Source: Vicinamibacterales bacterium
GTDB lineage: Bacteria; Acidobacteriota; Vicinamibacteria; Vicinamibacterales; UBA2999
Direction: 5' to 3'
Assembly (NCBI GenBank): GCA_050748045.1
Contig: JBOGIW010000339.1
Coordinates: 1-63,622 of the forward strand
DNA length: 63,622 bases
In this document: positions 5,662 through 36,752 of the stretch, piece after piece
How the letters are laid out: the number at the start of each line of letters is the position of its first letter
Numbering within the stretch: position 1 is the first letter of the stretch
The notes under the pieces: generated by a model
Told to the model about the DNA's origin: nothing
The model's input: only the letters and a program-made list of their open reading frames with translations
Databases searched by the model: none
Position numbers and translations under genes: made by a program

Positions 5662-6486
5662 CTACGGCGTGAAGCCACCGGACGTCACGCCCATCTCGCG
5701 GCGCGTCAGCGCCTTGCCGGGCGTCTGCACGGCGGCCTTCCTGGCACGGCGGTTCTGTTCGTCCTGCCCTCGCTGGCCGGTGTAGCCGCGCTCGATCTCC
5801 GTCGTATCGGTGCGGGCCACCGTGGTTTCGATGACCCGACGCACGCCGCCGGCGCCGTAGGCGTACGCCAGCATCGAGAGGACGCCCTGACCTTCATTCT
5901 TCGTGCACGGGGCGACGGGCGCCGCGCCGTCGACCAGCGGCTGGTTGTCGCACTCCGCCGGGTCGTCGGCCACCCAGACGATCACGTAGATCTCCGAGTT
6001 GAGCGTGTCGGTGGGCAGCAGGTCCGTCACCAGACCGTAGGCGTAGAGCTGCCACCGCGGGTTGTTCGCGCCCCACGGCCGCTCGTCCGTCATCGCATTC
6101 ATCGCCGCCTCGTCACACCCCGCGAGAATGCCGCACCGCACGATGTTCGTCGCCTGGACGAGGTCGATGACGCCGGCCCCCGTCGTGCGCTGTCCCGGCG
6201 GGCCGTCCACGAACGACGAGGTCAGGGTGCCGTCGAGAATGCGGTTCCAGTCGGGCACAGTGAGCAGGTCCTGCATCACCCGCTCGATCGCCGCGTCGGC
6301 GGCATAGAGCGTCTCGGACCCCGCGCGATGATTGCCTGAGATCTTCGTCTCGGTGACGGTCACCAGCGTCAACGCGACGCCGAGCGCCGTCAGCAGCAGC
6401 ATCGTCATCAGCGCGACGACGAGCGCCATGCCGCGCTCGCCGGCGCAGCGGTTCCGGAACGTGGACGGAGAAGGATGTGGCTGCAT
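5662..6486 (-). CDS. pilX: PilX-like minor pilin (PilX N-terminal domain)
   Basis: The N-terminus reads ...ERGMALVVALMTMLLLTALGVALTLVTVTETKISGNH, as in the PilX/GspK-like family. The gene lies between pilW and pilY1. Confidence 0.8.
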   Translation of the reverse strand: MQPHPSPSTFRNRCAGERGMALVVALMTMLLLTALGVALTLVTVTETKISGNHRAGSETLYAADAAIERVMQDLLTVPDWNRILDGTLTSSFVDGPPGQRTTGAGVIDLVQATNIVRCGILAGCDEAAMNAMTDERPWGANNPRWQLYAYGLVTDLLPTDTLNSEIYVIVWVADDPAECDNQPLVDGAAPVAPCTKNEGQGVLSMLAYAYGAGGVRRVIETTVARTDTTEIERGYTGQRGQDEQNRRARKAAVQTPGKALTRREMGVTSGGFTP

Positions 6487-20295: not shown

Positions 20296-21567
20296 TTACT
20301 GCCGTGCGGCGGTGCTCCTTTTCAGCTCGTATGCGATGGCGGCGTCGAAGAACTGGGGACGAAGCCCGCCCTCGATCTTGACGCCGTTGATGAAGAAGGT
20401 CGGCGTCCGGTTCACGCCCAGTTGCCGCCCCTGGGCGGCGTCGGCTCGGACCTGCTCGAGCACTTTCGGATACTGTGCATCGAAGTCGGTGACGCCCGCC
20501 ACCTGCCGCACGCCTTGCCGCACGAGATCGGGAGACATCGACGCCTGGTTGTCGAAGAGCCAGCTCTCCATCGCATCGGCGCGGTTGCGGTTCCTCGCCA
20601 TGCGCACCGCCGCGGCCGCCTCGCAACCGGCCACGTGTACGCCGCCGGTATTGCACTCGGCCTCGAGCGGGAAATCCTTGCTGACGTACTTCACCTTGCC
20701 GGGATGCTGCGCCTGGTACCGCTCGAGGATCGGCTTGTACTCGGTATACGTCTGCCGGCACGGCGGGCACTGATAATCGTTGAACTTCACAATCACCACC
20801 GCCGCCCCATCGTCGGCCACCATGACCGGCACGCGGGGCTGCGCAGCCATCCACCTCTCGAACTCGACGAGCTGCGACTCCTGGACGGCGGGCAGGACGG
20901 CTGGCGCGGCAGCCGAGGGGGCGGCGGCCGGCGCCGCGGGCGCCGGCCGCGGGAAGAACGCAATGGCCGACGCCGCGCCGACCAGGTAGACGCAGGCGAT
21001 CGTCAGCGCCACGGGGCTCTTGAGCAGCCGGCGGAGATCGGCGGCCAGCCGTCCGGGCACAAAGCGCATCGCCGACTGCGAGGCGGCACCGGAGATGACG
21101 AACACCCCGATGACGGCGACATAGGTGACCGCACAGAGCACACAGAGCGTCTTCAGCACGAAAAAGGAGGCATAGGCCATGTAGAGCACCACCGCGAGAG
21201 CCGCAGTTGACAGCACGAACAAGTACGAGGATGTCTCGCTGGCCGGCGGCGCGGGCGCGGCGGCCGGAGCGCGTCCCCGTCGTGCCTCGGCCGGACCGAG
21301 TGCGACGGCTGGCGCCGGGCGATCGACCCACGCCAGCAGCAGCACGAGCAGAAACCAGAGCAGGCCCGCCAGCGCCACCGGGACCCCGAGCACCGTGCCA
21401 TATACGCTCTGGTAGACGCTCTCGCAGTTCACCGTGGCGCTGATGTCGCAGAAGCTCGTATAGCCCGGGTTCCGCAGCAGTTGATAGTGGACGTAAGTCG
21501 ACGCGCCCGTGGCCGCGAGGCCGCCCAGGGCGAACAGAAGCACGAGCAGGCGGTGGCGGGAGGACAT
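20296..21567 (-). CDS. VKOR (vitamin K epoxide reductase)-DsbA-like thioredoxin fusion protein
   Basis: The N-terminal membrane domain has a loop Cys pair (FCDISATVNCE) and a CxxC (LCVLCA). The C-terminal domain has CPPC (YQCPPCRQ) and a DsbA-like fold. Confidence 0.82.
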   Translation of the reverse strand: MSSRHRLLVLLFALGGLAATGASTYVHYQLLRNPGYTSFCDISATVNCESVYQSVYGTVLGVPVALAGLLWFLLVLLLAWVDRPAPAVALGPAEARRGRAPAAAPAPPASETSSYLFVLSTAALAVVLYMAYASFFVLKTLCVLCAVTYVAVIGVFVISGAASQSAMRFVPGRLAADLRRLLKSPVALTIACVYLVGAASAIAFFPRPAPAAPAAAPSAAAPAVLPAVQESQLVEFERWMAAQPRVPVMVADDGAAVVIVKFNDYQCPPCRQTYTEYKPILERYQAQHPGKVKYVSKDFPLEAECNTGGVHVAGCEAAAAVRMARNRNRADAMESWLFDNQASMSPDLVRQGVRQVAGVTDFDAQYPKVLEQVRADAAQGRQLGVNRTPTFFINGVKIEGGLRPQFFDAAIAYELKRSTAARQ

Positions 21568-21577
21568 TGGTCGATCT

Positions 21578-21731
21578 TATTCGGATTCCGGATTCTCATT
21601 CGGATTCGGGATTCTCAGCGGAACTCGAGCTCCCTGGATTGCCGAGTTCCCGGAATCAGAATGGGAATCCGGATTACCAATCGGAATCAGAATTGTAGTC
21701 GGAATCAAGAATAGGAATCCCGAATTCCCGT
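21578..21731. repeat. AT-richer array of degenerate 6-7 nt repeats (GGATTC-type on the left, the complementary GAATCC/GGAATC-type on the right) around a central 8-bp hairpin
   Basis: ATTCGGATTCCGGATTCTCATTCGGATTCGGGATTC ... GGAACTCG-N15-CGAGTTCC ... CGGAATCAGAATGGGAATCC...GGAATCCCGAATTCC. It fills the pilA2 stop to VKOR-DsbA start interval. Confidence 0.8.
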
Positions 21732-21743
21732 GCCAATCGCCGC

Positions 21744-22299: not shown

Positions 22300-22833
22300 T
22301 TACTGCAGGATCGTGACGTTGCCGCCGACGACCGGCTGCGGGTCCGCGTCCACGATGGCCGCGTTCGTGGTGTCGACGAAGATCGTGCCGAGCTCGCGGA
22401 TCGCGAACGTGCGCTGGCCGCTCGTGCCGAACACGATCGGACGGCCCATCGCGAAGAAGGTCACACGGCCGCCGGCGCACATGCCGACGTTCGATCCGCC
22501 GGGACCCGCCGGAAGCCCGTCGCCGAGCGTGAAGTTGTAACCGCTCTTCGCGATGGGCTGCAACGCGTTGAACTCGCCGGGGAGGAAGCGGTTCGCCGGA
22601 TCCGCCAGCCCCGCCGCGCCCTGGAACGCGATCGAGTAGCCGCCGCACGACGAGAAGTACGAGAGGTTGCCGCTGTGGATCGACCGCATCGATCCGATCG
22701 CCGACGCCTCGTTGCCCGACGCGCGCGCGCGCAGCAGGCCCGGCACCGCGATGGCCGCGATGATGCCGATGATCGCCACCACGATCAGCAGCTCGATGAG
22801 GGTGAAGCCCTCGCTGTTCCGCATCTTCTTCAC
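22300..22833 (-). CDS. pilA: Type IV major pilin, paralog 1
   Basis: MKKMRNSEGFTLIELLIVVAIIGIIAAIAVP, with Cys pair SCGGY ... MCAGG. GTG start is preceded by AAGGAG at a 7-nt spacing. It is the first gene downstream of a consensus sigma-54 promoter. Confidence 0.9.
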   Translation of the reverse strand: MKKMRNSEGFTLIELLIVVAIIGIIAAIAVPGLLRARASGNEASAIGSMRSIHSGNLSYFSSCGGYSIAFQGAAGLADPANRFLPGEFNALQPIAKSGYNFTLGDGLPAGPGGSNVGMCAGGRVTFFAMGRPIVFGTSGQRTFAIRELGTIFVDTTNAAIVDADPQPVVGGNVTILQ

Positions 22834-22975
22834 AGTGATACTCCTTGAGAGCGCTCGGGCCGGTCAGGCCCGACCTACCTGGTTGCGTGTCGCCGCTCCG
22901 ACCACGGCGCCTCGTGCCCTCGACGTTGCTCGGGCCACCCCGAGCCCTGTCGCGGGATGAACGGTTCAGGTAGCG

Positions 22976-27477: not shown

Positions 27478-28614
27478 TTACCGTCCCATCGCGGGCCGCG
27501 GCGGCATCCCGGCCGGCCGGCCCATCCCGGCGCCGGCCACCACGCCGACGCCGCGGTTGATCAGGTCCTGCAGCTCGTCGCGGTTCGAGGAGGCGCCGAG
27601 CGACACCTCGAGCGAGATCTGCTTCTTCAGGTAGAGCGTCGCGAGCGACTGGTTCATCGTCTGCATGCCGACCTTCTCCTGGCCCGTCTGCATGGCGGAG
27701 TAGATCTGGTGAATCTTGTCCTCCCGGACGAGGTTCCGGATGGCGGGGGTCGGAATCATGATCTCGAGCGCCACGACGCGCCCGCCGCCGATCTTCGGCA
27801 GCAGCGCCTGGCAGACGATGCCCTCGAGCACGAGCGAGAGCTGCGTGCGGATCTGCGACTGCTGGTTCGCCGGGAAGATGTCGATGATGCGGTTGATCGT
27901 CTGCGCGGCCGAGTTCGTGTGGAGCGTCCCGAACGTCAGGTGGCCCGTCTCGGCAATCTTGAGCGCCGCCTCGACGGTCTCGAGGTCACGCATCTCGCCG
28001 ATGAGCACGATGTCCGGGTCCTCGCGGAGCGCCGCGCGCAGGGCGTTCGAAAAGCTCTGCGTATCGCTGTGCACCTCGCGCTGGTTCACGAGACAGTTCT
28101 GGTGCTGGTGGACGAACTCGATCGGGTCCTCGATGGTGAGGATGTGGTCGTGGCGCTCCTTGTTGATCTTGTCGATCATGGCGGCCAGCGTCGTCGACTT
28201 GCCGGACCCGGTCGGCCCGGTGACGAGCACGAGCCCGCGCGGACGCTCGGAGAGCGTCGCGATGACCGCGGGCAGCGCCAGCTCCGGGAAGCTGCGAATC
28301 TTCTCGGGGATGACGCGATACACCGCGCCCACGGCGCCCCGCTGGTTGAACATGTTGCAGCGGAAGCGCGCCAGCCCCTTCAGGCCGAAGGAGAAATCGA
28401 GCTCGAGGTGCTCCTCGAACCGCTTCTTCTGCAAGTCGGTCAGCACGCTGTAGGTGAGCTGCTTCGTCTCCGAGGGCGTCATCTCGCCCCCCTCGAGCCG
28501 CTGCAGGTGCCCGTGCACACGCACCTGGGGCGGGGTGCTGGTCGTGATGTGGAGATCCGAGCCCTCCATCTCTACGAGGGTCTTCAACAATTCGGGCAAC
28601 GTCGGCATATTCAT
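27478..28614 (-). CDS. pilT: Twitching-motility retraction ATPase PilT
   Basis: Walker A GPTGSGKST, plus HLTFGTLHTNSA and AIRNLVREDK motifs. Start at MNMPTL (28614). The C-terminus has a Gly/Pro/Met-rich extension. Confidence 0.92.
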   Translation of the reverse strand: MNMPTLPELLKTLVEMEGSDLHITTSTPPQVRVHGHLQRLEGGEMTPSETKQLTYSVLTDLQKKRFEEHLELDFSFGLKGLARFRCNMFNQRGAVGAVYRVIPEKIRSFPELALPAVIATLSERPRGLVLVTGPTGSGKSTTLAAMIDKINKERHDHILTIEDPIEFVHQHQNCLVNQREVHSDTQSFSNALRAALREDPDIVLIGEMRDLETVEAALKIAETGHLTFGTLHTNSAAQTINRIIDIFPANQQSQIRTQLSLVLEGIVCQALLPKIGGGRVVALEIMIPTPAIRNLVREDKIHQIYSAMQTGQEKVGMQTMNQSLATLYLKKQISLEVSLGASSNRDELQDLINRGVGVVAGAGMGRPAGMPPRPAMGR

Positions 28615-28794
28615 CTCAACTCCCCACTCTTCAACTCCCAACTCCCAACTTCCAACGTCCAATCCTCAACTTCCAACTCCCAACTCCCAACTTCCAACTC
28701 CCAATCCTCCAACTCCCAACTCCCAATCCTCGACTCCCAATCTCGACTCCCAATCCTCGACTGCCAATCTCCACTTCCAATCCTCGACTCCCAA
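28615..28794. repeat. About 25 degenerate heptanucleotide tandem repeats (CTCCCAA/CTTCCAA/TCCTCAA on the plus strand) abutting the pilT start codon
   Basis: Read directly from the sequence. The heptad register holds from 28615 to ~28794 with one 8-mer slip. On the pilT-sense strand the units read UUGGGAG, UUGGAAG and UUGAGGA. Confidence 0.9.
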
Positions 28795-28904
28795 AACGAC
28801 TGCGCGTGCGCCACGAGCCTGCTCGCAACCAATGAATGAAAGGGGTGCGTGCTCGGGCCGATTGGCAAGGTAAGACGGCGCGTGAGCGCACAAGCGACGT
28901 TTCC

Positions 28905-28929
28905 TTGGGAGTTGAGAGTTGGGAGTTGA
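28905..28929. repeat. Three inverted copies of the pilT-leader heptad (TTGGGAGTTGAGAGTTGGGAGTTGA), immediately after the pilB stop
   Basis: This is the reverse complement of the 28615-28794 repeat unit. On the mRNA it reads UCAACUCCCAACUCUCAACUCCCAA. Confidence 0.85.
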
Positions 28930-28930
28930 A

Positions 28931-30688
28931 TCATTTCACCGTCTCCCTCACCACTTCCTCGATCGTCGTGAGGCCGTCCTTGATTTTCCGCAGCCCGCTG
29001 TCGCGCAGCGTGATCATCCCGTCCTCGATCGACTTGCGCCGGAGCTCGAGGGCGGATGCGCCGACGAGGATCAGCTCGCGCAGCTCCTCGGTGACCTCCA
29101 TCACCTCGTAGAGGCCGACGCGTCCCTTGTAGCCGGTGTTGTTGCACTTGTCGCAGCCCTTGCCCCGGTTGGGGACCACCGCCTTGGCGTCCTGCGGGCT
29201 GAAGCCGGCCTGCGCGAGCGCCTGTGGCGGCGTGGGGTGGGGTTCCTTGCAGGCGGCGCAGATGCGGCGCACGAGGCGCTGCGCGCAGATGAGCTGGAGG
29301 GAGCTGGCCACCAGGAACGGCTCGATGCCCATGTTCATGAGGCGGTTCACCGTGCTCGGCGCGTCGTTGGTGTGGAGCGTCGAGAGCACGAGGTGGCCCG
29401 TGAGCGCCGCCTTCACGGCGATCTCCGCCGTCTCGAAGTCGCGGATTTCGCCGACGAGGATGATGTTCGGGTCCTGCCGCAGGAAGCTCCGGAGTGCGGC
29501 GGCGAAGTTGAGGCCGATCGACTCGCGCACCTGCACCTGGTTGACGCCCATCAGGTTGAACTCGACCGGGTCTTCGGCGGTCATGATGTTGGTGTCCACC
29601 GTGTTGACCTTCGAGATCGAGGAGTAGAGCGTGTTCGTCTTGCCGCTGCCGGTGGGACCCGTGACGAGCACCATGCCCCACGGCTTCCCGATCGCGGTCT
29701 CGAACTTCGTGAGCGACTCCTGCTCGAAGCCGAGCTTCGTCATGTCGAGCATCAGCTTGTTCTTGTCGAGCAGACGCATGACAATCTTCTCCCCGAAGAG
29801 CGTGGGGAGACACGAGACGCGGAAGTCGATGTCGCGAAGCTCGCCGTTGTCCTGGAAGCGGATCTTGATGCGGCCGTCCTGCGGAAGGCGCTTCTCCGCG
29901 ATGTCGAGCTTCGACATGATCTTGATGCGCGACGTGATCGCGTCCCGGTACTTCATCGGCGGCGCCATGATGTTGTAGAGCAGACCGTCGATGCGGTAGC
30001 GGACGCGCAGCTCCTTCTCGTAGGGCTCGATGTGGATGTCGCTTGCGCCCTTCTGGATCGCCGACATCAGGATCACGTTGACCAGCTTGATGACCGGGGC
30101 TTCCTCGCCCTGCCGCGCGAGCGCCTCGGCGCTGATCTCCTCGAACTCCTCGAGGACCTCGACGTCGCCGGCGTCGGCGAGCATCGGCATCTCGTCGAGC
30201 GCCTTCGACGCCAGCTCGAGCGCGCTCGGCCCCTCGGATTGCGCGGCCGCCGCCTTGCCCGCCTTGCTCCCGTAGTACTTCTCGATGGCCTCGATGACGG
30301 CCGTCTCGGAAGCCACCACCGGCTCGACGTTGTAGCCCGTCATGAACTTGATGTCGTCCATGGCGAACACGTTGGTGGGGTCGGTCATCGCGATCGTGAG
30401 CGTGGCGCCCGCCCGCGACAGCGGCACAATCTGGTACTTCTGGGCCGTCTCGGACGGCACGAGCTTCACCACCGCCGGATCGATCTCGAACTCGCCGAGG
30501 GCGATGGAAGGCACGCCGTACTGCTTGCTGAGCAGCGACGTGATCTCCTCGTCCTTCACGTGCCCGAGCTTCACCAGGTTGAAGCCGAGCTTCCCCCCGT
30601 GCTGGCGCTGATAGTTCAGCGCCTCCTGCAGTTGCTCGGGCGAGATGCGCTTCTCCTTGAGAAGCAGTTCACCGATCCGGACGGCCAT
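28931..30688 (-). CDS. pilB: Type IV pilus assembly ATPase PilB
   Basis: N-terminal T2SS-E N-domain ([24 protein letters not shown]), Walker A GPTGSGKT and a tetracysteine motif (CAACKEP...[12 protein letters not shown]). Start at ATG 30688. Confidence 0.93.
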
Positions 30689-30697
30689 GTGGAGCGT

Positions 30698-30790
30698 CTT
30701 GGGTCTTCGGTCCTTGGTCTTTGGTCCTTGGTCTTTGGTCCTTGGTGCCTTGGTCTTTGATTCCGTGGTCCTGGGATCGCTGGTCCAGGG
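30698..30790. repeat. Heptanucleotide tandem array GGTCYTT (about 8 clean units, then degenerate), 10-14 nt upstream of the pilB start
   Basis: GGTCTTC GGTCCTT GGTCTTT GGTCCTT GGTCTTT GGTCCTT GGTGCCT TGGTCTT ... On the mRNA the units are AAGGACC/AAAGACC. Confidence 0.88.
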
Positions 30791-30887
30791 GCCTTCCGGT
30801 ATCGAGTGCCGTCTCCAGTTCTTCAGGCCTGAGTGCGACTCGTGACACCGCGACTCGTGGAGCCTGACGGCGGGCTCGGCGGCCTCC

Positions 30888-30922
30888 AATCACGAATCAC
30901 GACTGCAGGATCACGAATTCAA
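30888..30922. repeat. Short heptad array AATCACG AATCACG ACTGCAG GATCACG AATTCAA, abutting the OMP stop codon
   Basis: Read directly from the sequence. It lies in the same intergenic region as the pilB leader array. Confidence 0.7.
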
Positions 30923-31989
30923 AAGCTCAGCCGGGCCGCCACGCCCCAGCCTCGGTCGTCCATGCTTCCGCCTCCGGCGACGTGCGCCTCGACGAACCAC
31001 CCCGCGCGAACGGCGATGCTGACGCCGGCCGTCGCCGCCCGTTCTCGGGCGCCAGCGGTGTTGAACCGTGCGCCGCCGCGCAGGGCCAGCCGCTCCCGCG
31101 CGACCCACAGCTCGGCGCCAATCGCCACGTTGCGGCGATCGCCCGACGCCGTCGCCAGCGTGGACAGGTCCGCATCGAGCGCCACGACGAGCGGCGGGCC
31201 GTCAGCCTGGGCGGCGTCATACGCGACACCCGCCCGAAACAGCCGATCGAGGCGCACGACGCCCGCCTCAAGCGCCAACTCCGGCTCGATCGCATTCCGT
31301 ACGAGCAGGCCCGCTCGAACCGGCCCGGCCGTGCCGATGAGCCCTACGTCCGCGCCAAAGGCGCCGTCGCCTTCGCCGCCCTCCAGCCCCTCCGCCCGGT
31401 CGAGCAGCTCCCCGGGCGGCAGCAGGCTGTCCCCGCTCCCCGCCCGCAGCGTGCCGCGCACGTATTTCAGCGTCGCCCCGGCATGTACGCCCGGCACGAG
31501 CGTCTGAATGAGTGTGATGCCCAATTGGCTGGCCAGGAGCGATCGCACCGGCGGTCCAGCCCGTCTATCTTCTCGGCTGCCACTTTCTGTCACTGTAGGG
31601 TCGAACGCCCCCTCGACGGGGCTCCGGGCGGGCCCCTGGACTCCGCTCGGAGCGGGCACGACGTCTGTAAGCCGAAGGCGGTAATAGCTGAACCCGAAGG
31701 GTGGCGTGCCCAACGCAAACCAGGTCGCCGTGTCACGCCGTGCAGGCAGCGCCTCGCTCGACTCCGTCGTGGCGCGGGCAAGCGCCATGTCGAGAAATGG
31801 GCCGGCCGCCAGACCGGCCGGATTCCACCAGGTCGCACTGCTGTCCGACGCGACGGCGACAAAAGCGCCGCCCATCCCGAGCGCCCGGCTGCCCACGGTT
31901 TCCACCACTTGCGCAGCGGCCCACGTGACCTGTGTCACGAGGACGCATGCACACACGGGAAGACAATGCTTCAGCTTCGGTGTGCTCAT
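30919..31989 (-). CDS. Outer-membrane beta-barrel protein (FadL/TodX- or PorV-like N-terminal motif, C-terminal Phe)
   Basis: Signal peptide, then RALGMGGAFVAVASDSSATWWNPAGLA. The protein has alternating beta-strand character and ends ...GVAARLSF. The start is ATG 31989 or TTG 32013. Confidence 0.6.
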   Translation of the reverse strand: MSTPKLKHCLPVCACVLVTQVTWAAAQVVETVGSRALGMGGAFVAVASDSSATWWNPAGLAAGPFLDMALARATTESSEALPARRDTATWFALGTPPFGFSYYRLRLTDVVPAPSGVQGPARSPVEGAFDPTVTESGSREDRRAGPPVRSLLASQLGITLIQTLVPGVHAGATLKYVRGTLRAGSGDSLLPPGELLDRAEGLEGGEGDGAFGADVGLIGTAGPVRAGLLVRNAIEPELALEAGVVRLDRLFRAGVAYDAAQADGPPLVVALDADLSTLATASGDRRNVAIGAELWVARERLALRGGARFNTAGARERAATAGVSIAVRAGWFVEAHVAGGGSMDDRGWGVAARLSF

Positions 31990-32020
31990 CGACGTATAAT
32001 TTTGATTGGTCAAAAACAGG

Positions 32021-35358: not shown

Positions 35359-35435
35359 ATTCGAGCTTCACGATTCACACATCGAAGTCAGAAGCCAGAA
35401 ATCAGCAGTCAGCAGTCGAAAGACAGAGGTCAGAC
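35359..35435 (+). repeat. Eleven heptads (ATTCGAG CTTCACG ATTCACA CATCGAA GTCAGAA GCCAGAA ATCAGCA GTCAGCA GTCGAAA GACAGAG GTCAGAC) running exactly up to the macB2 GTG
   Basis: Read directly from the sequence. The 7-nt register is uninterrupted to position 35435 and the start codon is at 35436. Confidence 0.8.
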
Positions 35436-36752
35436 GTGGCGGCGAAGACGTTCAACCCGGCGATGCGGCTGGCGCTCCTCGGCGAGGTCGTCGGGATGGC
35501 GCTCGACACGCTGCGGTCGAACAAGCTCCGGTCGGCGCTCACGGTGCTCGGCGTGGTCATCGGCATCACCGCCATTGTCGGGATGACCTCGCTCATCCGG
35601 GGCTTCGACGAGTCGCTGCGCGACGGCATCCGCGAGCTCGGTCCCGAGACCATCTTCGTCGCCAAGTTCAGCGGCGTCAGCCTGGCGGCGGGACGCGAGT
35701 TCGCCCAGCTCATCCGCCGGCCCAACCTGACGATCGACGACGCGAAGGCGATCGAGAAGCTGGCGCCGTCGGCGGCGATGGTGGACGTGTGGCTCGGCGC
35801 GGGCGGCCCGCCCACCCAGGAGCGGGTGTTCTACCGCGGCGAGCGCACCAAGCCGCTGGCCGTGATGGGCGTCACCGAAAACTTCGCCAACATCAGCTTC
35901 CTGAAGATCACCACGGGACGCTTTTTCACGGCGTTCGAGGTGGAGCGCCGCCGGAACGTGGCCGTGCTCGGCCAGACGCCGTATCAGGCGCTCTTCGCGG
36001 AGCAGGGCCTGGACCCGGTCGGCAAGAAGGTCCGCATCGGCGCCGTCGAGTACACGATCGTCGGCGTCACGGGGAAGCGCCCGGCGATGGGAGGCTTCAA
36101 TCTGGGTCAGGACGACTTCGTGGTCATCCCCGAGACGACGTACCGGAAGCAGTTCGGCATCCGGCTGATCCGGGGGCCCGGCGGCGCCACGCACCAGAGC
36201 CTGCTCATCGCCGCGCTGCCGCACGAGGAGGCCACGCGCGCCCAGCTCATCTCCGAGGTCGAAGAGATCATGCGGGTGCGGCACGGGCTCAAGCTCGACG
36301 ACGAGAACGACTTCGACATCCTCACGCAGGACGCGGTGCTCAAGACGTGGGACCAGGTCAGTGCGGCGACTTTCTTCGCGCTCGTCGTGATCTCGTCGAT
36401 CGCGCTGATGGTGGGCGGCATCGGCGTGATGGCCATCATGATGATCTCGGTCACCGAGCGCACGCGGGAGATCGGCGTGCGGAAAGCGCTCGGCGCGCGG
36501 CGCCGCGAGATCCTGTGGCAGTTCCTGCTCGAGGCCGCGGTCCTGACCTCGGTCGGCGGCATCCTCGGCATCGTCCTCGGCGCGTCGATCGGATTCGCCG
36601 TCCACTTCGCGACGGGGTTCCCGATCTCGCTGCCGTGGTGGTCGTTCGCGCTCGGCATCGGCTTCTCGGCGAGCGTCGGGATCTTCTTCGGGATGTTCCC
36701 CGCCATCCGCGCGTCGCGGCTGGACCCGATTGAGGCCCTGCGCTACGAATAG
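35436..36752 (+). CDS. Second MacB/FtsX-type ABC permease
   Basis: ALDTLRSNKLRSALTVLGVVIGITAIV ... ERTREIGVRKALGARRREI. GTG start. Confidence 0.85.
   Translation: MAAKTFNPAMRLALLGEVVGMALDTLRSNKLRSALTVLGVVIGITAIVGMTSLIRGFDESLRDGIRELGPETIFVAKFSGVSLAAGREFAQLIRRPNLTIDDAKAIEKLAPSAAMVDVWLGAGGPPTQERVFYRGERTKPLAVMGVTENFANISFLKITTGRFFTAFEVERRRNVAVLGQTPYQALFAEQGLDPVGKKVRIGAVEYTIVGVTGKRPAMGGFNLGQDDFVVIPETTYRKQFGIRLIRGPGGATHQSLLIAALPHEEATRAQLISEVEEIMRVRHGLKLDDENDFDILTQDAVLKTWDQVSAATFFALVVISSIALMVGGIGVMAIMMISVTERTREIGVRKALGARRREILWQFLLEAAVLTSVGGILGIVLGASIGFAVHFATGFPISLPWWSFALGIGFSASVGIFFGMFPAIRASRLDPIEALRYE

Follow-up and report, generated by a model that had tools for sequence, protein, structure and literature searches.

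The heptad-rich spacer between pilB and pilT in a Vicinamibacterales bacterium is probably a copy of a dispersed hairpin-forming extragenic element

Why should pilB and pilT of a Vicinamibacterales bacterium (Acidobacteriota) be held apart by 314 nucleotides rich in seven-letter repeats that look like Shine–Dalgarno (SD) sequences? The question is raised by a 63,622 nucleotide (nt) stretch of contig JBOGIW010000339.1 (GenBank assembly GCA_050748045.1), which was analyzed at its full length and is called the window here. The pilB–pilT spacer of the window occupies positions 28616–28929 (314 nt). An original prediction, made from the letters of this stretch, described it as a pilT leader in which SD-like heptads face complementary anti-SD-like units next to the pilB stop codon, and listed several possible roles. 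Our analysis favors another answer. The 314 nt spacer is probably one copy of a dispersed, hairpin-forming extragenic element of the Vicinamibacterales lineage, and not a pilT-specific switch. The parts of the locus, in the order in which they are transcribed, are as follows.

28931–30688, minus strand: pilB, 585 amino acids (aa), with MshEN and T2SSE domains (Pfam)
28905–28929, minus strand: short 5′ (pilB-side) arm, UCAACUCCCAACUCUCAACUCCCAA (Tandem Repeats Finder, inverted-repeat pairs, family termini)
28795–28904, minus strand: core, an imperfect palindrome of 110 nt (nhmmer alignment, hairpin fold)
28616–28794, minus strand: expanded 3′ (pilT-side) arm (Tandem Repeats Finder, motif counts, folding)
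28620–28624, minus strand: terminal GGGAG in the last heptad, the likely SD sequence of pilT (from the sequence and standard SD spacing)
27478–28614, minus strand: pilT, a T2SSE ATPase (Pfam, homologues)

Tandem Repeats Finder placed a period-7 array at 28617–28794 (25.4 copies, 68% matches, score 134), with a 27 nt higher-order repeat nested in it at 28719–28794 (2.8 copies, 91%), and an inverted run of 3.6 copies at 28905–28929. On the sense strand the spacer reads TGA-T-TCAACTCCCAACTCTCAACTCCCAA ... GGGGAGTTGA-G-ATG. The inverted run begins 1 nt past the pilB stop codon TGA (28933–28931), and the array ends at the pilT start codon ATG (28614–28612). The short arm holds 3.6 heptads without a single G in 25 nt and opens with TCAAC; the long arm is made of about 25 degenerate heptads, among them UUGGGAG, UUGGAAG and UCGAGGA, and closes with GUUGA. 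Both ends are termini of the family described below. On the mRNA (minus) strand, we counted 11 GGGAG, 5 GAGGA, 4 GGAAG, 13 GGAG, 10 exact TTGGGAG and 23 GGA (in 186 nt). Exact TTGGGAG occurs 14 times in the window, compared with 4.7 ± 2.5 times in shuffled sequence, and none of 100 shuffles reached 14. Twelve of the 14 occurrences are inside the spacer, ten on the minus strand in the array and two on the plus strand in the inverted run. Array and short arm can pair in 16 registers, the five longest of which extend over 24–26 nt with 88–92% complementarity. The GC content is 0.527 in the array and 0.596 at 28795–28930, against 0.679 for the whole window, and C accounts for 6 of the 178 bases of the array. 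With head-to-tail 7 nt units repeated beyond chance, in non-coding DNA between the pilB stop and the pilT start, the array is a long simple sequence repeat (LSSR). As a description, the original prediction was accurate: the position of the array and its roughly 25 heptads, the inverted units beside the pilB stop, their pairing with downstream heptads in many registers and a GC content below the background were all recovered, and the counts of GGGAG, GAGGA and GGAAG were exact on the minus strand.

The arms of the spacer recur at many other sites. For the exact arm 28-mer TTGGGAGTTGGGAGTTGGAAGTTGGGAG, the matches listed from the GTDB representative genomes number more than 114 stretches. About 85 of these stretches are from Acidobacteriota or Vicinamibacterales, at least 22 of the listed stretches coming from one metagenome-assembled genome (MAG) and at least 14 from another. 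In Acidobacteriota loci, we found about 45 copies with an arm–core–arm organization, plus variants with a short core of about 30 nt. The left arm is TCAAC-TCCCAACTCCCAACTTCCAACTCCCAA with four heptads. The core is palindromic, measures 80–99 nt, as a rule about 85 nt, and reads roughly GGGGAGCCGTTCGAACAACGGGGTGAAAGTCG...CGACTTTCACCCCGTTGTTCGAACGGCTCCCC, with the consensus motifs GTTCGAAC..GGGGTGAAAG ... CTTTCACCCC..GTTCGAAC. The right arm is TTGGGAG repeated four times, closing in TTGA. Since the element is the same on both strands, any transcript of it begins with the C-rich arm and finishes with the G-rich arm. A core 20-mer was found at 12 sites, all in three MAGs. Nearly all of these sites carry both arms (L209 is without the right arm), and the arms are thus an integral part of the element. 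The arm 28-mer was absent from viral contigs. Rfam gave no match at the gathering score in the window, tRNA only in 18 family loci, and nothing relevant for 28400–31100 at E ≤ 1.

The family consensus folds into a hairpin of approximately 72 bp. RNAalifold on a MAFFT alignment gave part of the hairpin only, and it was replaced by a consensus fold with pair counting. Across 30 copies, 81.8% of the cells are paired, compared with at most 52% when the partners are slid. In thirty of the 70 pairs both partners have changed, and none of 500 shuffles reaches the observed count of compensated cells. One copy (L210, about 6230–6420) is an example of concerted arm evolution, in which both arms are altered complementarily, CCAACGATCCAACGATCCAA with TTGGATCGTTGGATCGTTGG.

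The window copy has the termini of this family, TCAAC (28929) ... GTTGA (28616), together with the inverted CAACTCC/TTGGGAG arms, and it fills the whole spacer. A profile built from the 30 copies matches 28768–28928 on both strands over model positions 6–142 (nhmmer; plus strand E = 1.6e-7, 31.5 bits; minus strand E = 1e-6). In the alignment, half of the window core, GCTCGCAACCAATGAATGAAAGG on the plus strand, resembles the family consensus GTTCGAACCAACGGGGTGAAAGT, and, compared with the family, the window core has an extra 18 nt inserted. The 163 nt of 28768–28930, which take in the short arm, the core and the initial long-arm units, fold as one hairpin of −67.7 kcal/mol, compared with −51.9 ± 3.6 kcal/mol for shuffles (z = −4.36). 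The leftover heptads, about 150 nt, have nearly no structure. The array alone has a minimum free energy (MFE) of −18.3 kcal/mol, the weakest of all when set against 159 genomic windows of the same length (−75.1 ± 10.9 kcal/mol). Taken together, the window spacer is rather likely to be a diverged family member in which the pilT-side arm has expanded from about 4 to about 25 units.

Where do the other copies sit? The 163 arm ends comprise 65 next to a gene start, 68 next to the stop codon of a gene that runs toward the element, and 30 that are unassigned. For the stop-adjacent ends the distance is short, 58 of the 68 being within 25 nt of the stop, and the window copy, intergenic and 1 nt from the pilB stop, fits this arrangement. 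Distances to start codons are more spread, with several copies ending 0–13 nt before an ATG. Complete elements occupy 29 tandem, 15 convergent and 6 divergent gaps (background 223, 68 and 68). The pattern resembles that of elements of the repetitive extragenic palindrome (REP) type and is incompatible with a role tied to a downstream start codon. The SD/anti-SD device specific to pilT, among the roles originally suggested, is not supported: CAACTCC and TTGGGAG are the arms of a dispersed palindrome that often lies between convergent genes, where no start codon follows.

The same junction was compared in relatives. The closest PilT relatives are from Vicinamibacterales (Acidobacteriota) MAGs, with 91–93% identity. 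The 93% relative (L197) has a 2 nt spacer, pilB TAG-AC-ATG pilT, and in the 91% relative the spacer is about 29 nt long and holds no array. Some other Acidobacteriota PilT loci have no spacer, and the two genes overlap in TAATG. In such spacer-less relatives (L003, L007 and L014; overlapping TAATG), a GGGAG encoded by pilB lies about 11–12 nt before the pilT ATG. The final pilB codons of the window, AGG GAG ACG GTG AAA TGA, also contain GGGAG. A sister species, P0008 (PilT 92% identical; 12 metagenome contigs), has the same layout made from an unrelated unit: pilB TAG, a GGTCTCT/GGTCTTC run, a short core, and a long AGAGACC/GAAGACC run that ends about 30 nt before the ATG. The array units of P0008 contain no GGAG, GAGG, AGGA or GGA.

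In P0008 the spacer measures 232, 344, 365 or 456 nt depending on the sample (L198–L204, from Joint Genome Institute (JGI) metagenomes 3300059412–3300059433, positions about 1044–1500). Every pairwise difference is divisible by 7, and the flanks, 1,800 nt on the downstream side and about 1,100 nt on the upstream side, are 99.7–100% identical. The number of GGA remains 5–7 while the array doubles, because the units are without GGA, and the counts of SD-like motifs are likewise flat. These length differences, which come from short-read assemblies of the homologous leader, support the slippage-prone repeat of the original prediction. Its SD and CsrA readings are not conserved, because the P0008 leader array lacks such motifs and the 93% and 91% relatives have no array. 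Exact and degenerate searches of metagenome contigs for strain variants gave no matches.

We propose that the long arm has most likely grown by slipped-strand mispairing or unequal exchange, in 7 nt steps. Transcription would run through the element from pilB into pilT. The RNA would then contain a hairpin of about 160 nt directly past the pilB stop, followed by a C-poor, unstructured tail of G, U and A of about 150 nt. The last unit of this tail would provide the SD of pilT, as its GGGAG (28620–28624) sits 5 nt (UUGAG) 5′ of ATG 28614. The insertion would have displaced the ancestral GGGAG encoded by pilB by 315 nt, with the terminal GGGAG of the element as a substitute. The SD in the downstream arm would be what lets so tight an operon junction tolerate the element. 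The hairpin itself may act as a generic 3′-end structure, as with REP, ERIC and Correia elements, in mRNA stability, read-through or processing. No sigma-70-like promoter was predicted in 28400–31200. A consensus scan of the same region gave no intrinsic terminator in the spacer, and the element ends in GUUGA with no run of U. The start of pilT is at 28614 (378 aa) or at 28608 (376 aa), because there is a second in-frame ATG whose product fits the N-terminus of the relatives (MPTLPEL...). The gene call in strain L195 has 378 aa. An exact-sequence look-up of the PilT product with either start codon found no record.

Several results weigh against reading the spacer as a copy of a mobile, hairpin-forming family. 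A core-only profile did not detect the window copy, so what places it in the family are its arms, its termini and one half of its core. The full spacer, at 351 nt, is no more stable than its shuffles (z = +0.38). Family copies were retrieved by the exact arm 28-mer, which makes arm conservation look inflated. Tests of selection at the RNA level are weak: the sense strand is the stabler one in 16 versus 13 copies (p = 0.17), and the sense strand has the greater share of G·U pairs in 19 versus 7 copies. Mobility is deduced only from the dispersal of a shared core, because no transposase was found among the nine window proteins scanned with Pfam, no clean pair of filled and empty sites was found, and no target-site duplication was seen. 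Of the marks of a miniature inverted-repeat transposable element (MITE), the element has terminal inverted repeats, and a look at about 30 flanks showed no consistent duplication. Gene calls in the family loci were made with a heuristic based on GC content at third codon positions (GC3), and the enrichment between convergent genes is only a trend (p about 0.08–0.10). The length polymorphism in P0008 is from metagenome short-read assemblies, which can collapse tandem arrays. For the only near-identical strain, L195 (99.66%; Logan run ERR14225085), the contig stops within the array, 47 nt short of the ATG.

Heptad arrays and heptad-armed palindromes are also present elsewhere in the window.

30696–30772, minus-strand sense: AAGGACC/AAAGACC array of about 9 copies, its end lying 8 nt 5′ of the pilB ATG (30688) (Tandem Repeats Finder)
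30888–30918: TCGTGAT run, 4.4 copies, directly past the stop of the gene upstream of pilB
35384–35434: AGAAGTC/AGCAGTC array, 7.3 copies, between two MacB-like (MacB_PCD and FtsX) permease genes
21579–21738: palindrome GGATTCN ... GAATCCN, arms up to 41 nt, 76% complementary

For the array in the pilB leader, no inverted partner was found; its unit resembles the AGAGACC/GAAGACC of the P0008 pilT leader. The AGAAGTC/AGCAGTC array ends 1 nt before the GTG at 35436, which starts a MacB-like permease. The palindrome at 21579–21738 is flanked by a pilin-like gene (N_methyl motif, 22300–22863) and by a gene for a VKOR–thioredoxin/DsbA fusion (20296–21567). For a wider view, we used an unbiased set consisting of 80 PilT loci of other Acidobacteriota and the window (1.02–1.09 Mb). 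In this set, if multiples of 3 are left aside, no period is met as often as 7, with 58 arrays plus 25 of period 14. Period-7 and period-14 arrays are found outside open reading frames (ORFs) or at their ends, and period-21 arrays inside them. Many Acidobacteriota have heptad arrays in the pilB–pilT, pilT–pilC and pilC-downstream spacers, with a different unit each time. The set contains 11 pairs of inverted heptad arrays within 350 nt, and the pyrimidine-rich arm comes first in 9 of them, second in 1, with 1 equal. Arrays ending at most 30 nt 5′ of a start codon have a purine-rich sense strand in 27 versus 14 cases (p = 0.06).

One orthologous convergent gap could be followed through about 20 Vicinamibacterales species. 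Most of them have a palindrome or heptad arrays in it, with differing units. The TTGGGAG family is among them, as are GGGCTCT/AGAGCCC and AGGCTCY/RGAGCCT around a common core, CAGTCGN/CGACTGN whose arms have some 20 or more copies each, and GGGGATC/GATCCCC in the opposite polarity; the remaining types are a period-10 pair and plain palindromes. This comparison shows that hairpins persist at gene 3′ ends while the sequence and length of their arms turn over. In this gap (L218, 4090–4340; also L222–L225), some species have very long inverted CAGTCGN/CGACTGN arrays and others have kept a single arm.

It is conceivable, and we put this forward only tentatively, that heptad-armed inverted hairpins form a separate class of genome element, lineage-wide in Acidobacteriota. 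Three traits may characterize the class. It may tolerate changes of register, as slippage in either arm would leave the stem intact. It may have a polarity, in that most copies, whichever strand is read, begin with the pyrimidine-rich arm and finish with the purine-rich one; any downstream gene would therefore receive a purine-rich unstructured leader and, in the TTGGGAG family, an SD as well. It may stay in place at orthologous gene ends even as the two arms change their unit sequence together. Such hairpins may be kept by selection as portable terminators, insulators or leaders, or they may be made by an unknown heptad-generating or heptad-binding activity. A C-rich (rut-like, for Rho utilization) first arm was considered as a unifying trait of the class and dropped, as the first arms of other families contain G.

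The preferred reading, a copy of a dispersed extragenic element, has to be weighed against several functions that the spacer could serve for its own operon. In the one closest to the original prediction, the spacer is a dedicated translational device for pilT: the SD heptads would give ribosomes a place for standby or loading, the short arm would keep these heptads masked until it is melted by ribosomes that complete pilB, and the two genes would be translationally coupled. It would explain the GGGAG 5 nt before the ATG, the 13 GGAG in a nearly structure-free stretch of 178 nt, and a short arm that lies 1 nt past the pilB stop and has 16 registers open to it. The purine-rich sense strand of start-abutting arrays in relatives (27 versus 14, p = 0.06) and the family copies that end 0–13 nt before a start codon point the same way. 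However, the same arms also occur between convergent genes and at many unrelated loci, the leader array of P0008 is equally long without SD-like units, and the closest relatives have no such spacer. Moreover, an arm of 25 nt masks only 3–4 of the 25 units, and the full spacer shows no excess folding stability. We regard a dedicated device as unlikely. The SD-like platform of the original prediction stands as far as the GGGAG near the ATG and the least structured 178 nt stretch are concerned, but not in the P0008 array, which has no SD motifs, nor in the 93% and 91% relatives, which have no array. A tuning or contingency locus, in which heptad number is selected to vary and so to change the pilB:pilT ratio and twitching, draws on the P0008 spacers, which run from 232 to 456 nt in 7 nt steps between flanks that are 99.7–100% identical. 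The arrays in the pilB–pilT, pilT–pilC and pilC-downstream spacers of many Acidobacteriota and the second array of the window, before pilB, are in line with it. Yet the array lies between a stop and a start, neither in an ORF nor between promoter hexamers, and no sigma-70-like promoter is predicted. Its units are degenerate (68% matches), which lowers the slippage rate; similar arrays lie beside genes of a housekeeping type (the MacB-like permeases and the VKOR–DsbA gene); on a rough tally, pil spacers seemed no richer in arrays than other spacers; and repeat collapse in the assemblies may lie behind the length differences. We give adaptive tuning little credence. From the contingency repeat of the original prediction, slippage is retained, as seen in the 7 nt steps of P0008, and phase variation is not, the array being neither in an ORF nor between promoter elements.

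Rho favors C-rich, G-poor, unstructured RNA. A Rho-loading or insulator element would make use of the C-rich, G-poor arm that comes first in either direction, and it would terminate read-through or antisense transcription. The short arm, with 0 G in 25 nt, suits this, as do the antisense strand of the array (MFE −1.4 kcal/mol, 6 of 178 bases G), the pyrimidine-rich arm that comes first in 9 of 11 inverted array pairs, and the location of copies near stop codons, with some enrichment between convergent genes. Against it, the first arms of other heptad-armed palindromes, for example GGTCTCT and GGATTCN, are not C-rich and G-poor, and the typical 28 nt arms are short for a rut site. This makes a Rho element improbable as the explanation. 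A binding or titration site for CsrA/RsmA, which the original prediction had offered as a sponge of repeated GGA, found no favor beyond the 23 GGA in 186 nt. These GGA are in unstructured repeats and not in hairpin loops, the P0008 spacers keep 5–7 GGA while the array doubles in units without GGA, and the arms belong to a dispersed element. When the window and 1.8 Mb of loci were searched by tblastn with E. coli CsrA, no csrA turned up, which says little about the whole genome. A G-quadruplex (G4) heptamer repeat acting in the pilT 5′ untranslated region (UTR), like the Xanthomonas GGGAATC, can call on the 11 G3 tracts of the sense strand and, when loops of up to 12 nt are allowed, on 4 G4 motifs, and G-rich heptamer repeats that form G4 in vitro are known (PMC4692102). 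There are no canonical motifs with loops of up to 7 nt, other arrays of the class have no G tracts, and the orientation is opposite to that in Xanthomonas, where the G-rich strand is reported to be antisense upstream of ORFs (PMC4692102). Because the P0008 array is without GGA and there is no canonical G4 motif, we hold both the CsrA and the G4 explanation to be very improbable.

How does an element of this kind compare with known systems? Heptanucleotide repeats are reportedly the most abundant class of long simple sequence repeats in many bacteria, and polymerase slippage has been proposed for them (Mrazek et al. 2007, as reported in PMC4679880 and PMC4692102). LSSRs, with which the cyanobacterial short tandemly repeated repetitive (STRR) heptamers are grouped here, share with the present repeats intergenic 7 nt tandem units excluded from ORFs and length changes by whole units. 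They also share the occurrence in large, high-GC genomes of non-pathogens, a function described as unknown, and a proposed slippage with a 7 nt preference. The difference is that the array here has an inverted partner across a palindromic core, and both are arms of a dispersed multi-copy element. The TAACTGA repeats of marine Beggiatoaceae, Cyanobacteria and Bacteroidetes (MacGregor 2015, PMC4679880) are likewise forward heptamers that end a few nt before start codons. Their largest class ends 1 nt upstream of the start, they are patchy across phyla, and translational roles (S1, Csp, CsrA) are proposed only (PMC4679880). Their unit is a different one, there are 2–6 copies per set in Beggiatoaceae, and only one inverted set is reported there, whereas inverted pairing is the rule here. 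The G4-forming GGGAATC and GGGGA(C/T)T repeats of Xanthomonas and Nostoc (Rehm et al. 2015, PMC4692102) are also dispersed G-rich heptamers, over-represented in the non-coding DNA that separates co-oriented ORFs. They have 2 to 26 units, are mostly transcribed, and lie near starts and stops. Unlike them, the present repeats have the opposite strand orientation, no canonical G4 and no preference for four G-tracts; four units per arm make up a hairpin stem here.

The closest likeness in overall form is to REP/BIME, REPIN, ERIC and Correia/NEMIS elements, which are also imperfect palindromes of 100–170 nt in tens to hundreds of copies. As with these, the present copies often touch stop codons (PMC3733652), favor gene 3′ ends over divergent promoter regions, and keep their hairpin potential through compensatory change. 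REP sequences and REPINs have a palindromic unit of 20–40 nt with a terminal GTAG or CGTC tag (PMC3733652). In our alignment neither tag is found at the element ends, which are TCAAC and GTTGA. Unlike REP-type elements, the element has arms of expandable tandem heptads, and no target-site duplication was seen. Neither a RAYT, the transposase that mobilizes REPINs, nor a parent insertion sequence was identified, the Pfam scan covering nine proteins of the window. Limited literature searches did not find the repeat sequence in a relevant context or any report of heptanucleotide repeats in Acidobacteriota. Within those searches, the combination of a dispersed extragenic palindrome with expandable heptad arms has apparently not been described.

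Since 2007, heptanucleotide tandem repeats have reportedly ranked as the most frequent long simple repeats in many bacterial genomes, and we know of no mechanism or function established for them. In Vicinamibacterales, many heptad arrays are inverted pairs that form long hairpins beside stop codons, and at least one heptad-armed family is dispersed in tens of copies per genome. Arms change by 7 nt steps, and their sequence turns over at orthologous sites with complementarity kept. The locus and its relatives make the question of heptad-repeat function testable. For annotation, the lesson is that such leaders are best read as repeat-element insertions and not as gene-specific riboregulators. 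Arrays of this kind also break short-read assemblies, as in the Logan contig of strain L195.

Several minor observations concern pilT and its neighbors. PilC is a T2SSF protein (Pfam), with a PilS-like kinase next after it, and the gene upstream of pilB (30919–32013) has no Pfam match. The pilT frame is open for 54 nt 5′ of ATG 28614, into the array (28612–28665, minus strand). Ten GGAG motifs have a TTG 5–9 nt downstream, and if translation were to start within the array, PilT might gain a few residues at its N-terminus. A relative with 87% identity (L196, 3001–4809; ENA contig_131395) has a 602 aa gene call that joins the C-terminal part of PilB to PilT. This fusion is probably due to a frameshift or an assembly error in pilB.

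The unit itself also occurs in long plain arrays of TTGGGAG/TTGGAAG in unrelated phyla. We saw these in Thermoguttaceae (L082, L146 and L180), in Tepidiforma (L091 and L125), in cyanobacteria (L092, L111, L152 and L153) and in Proteobacteria of the goat rumen (L101, L107, L140 and L156). In a rumen proteobacterium, the TTGGGAG/TTGGAAG unit is paired with inverted AACTCAT/AACTCAA arrays, with a conserved core between them. In Tepidiforma, several different heptad arrays adjoin one another.

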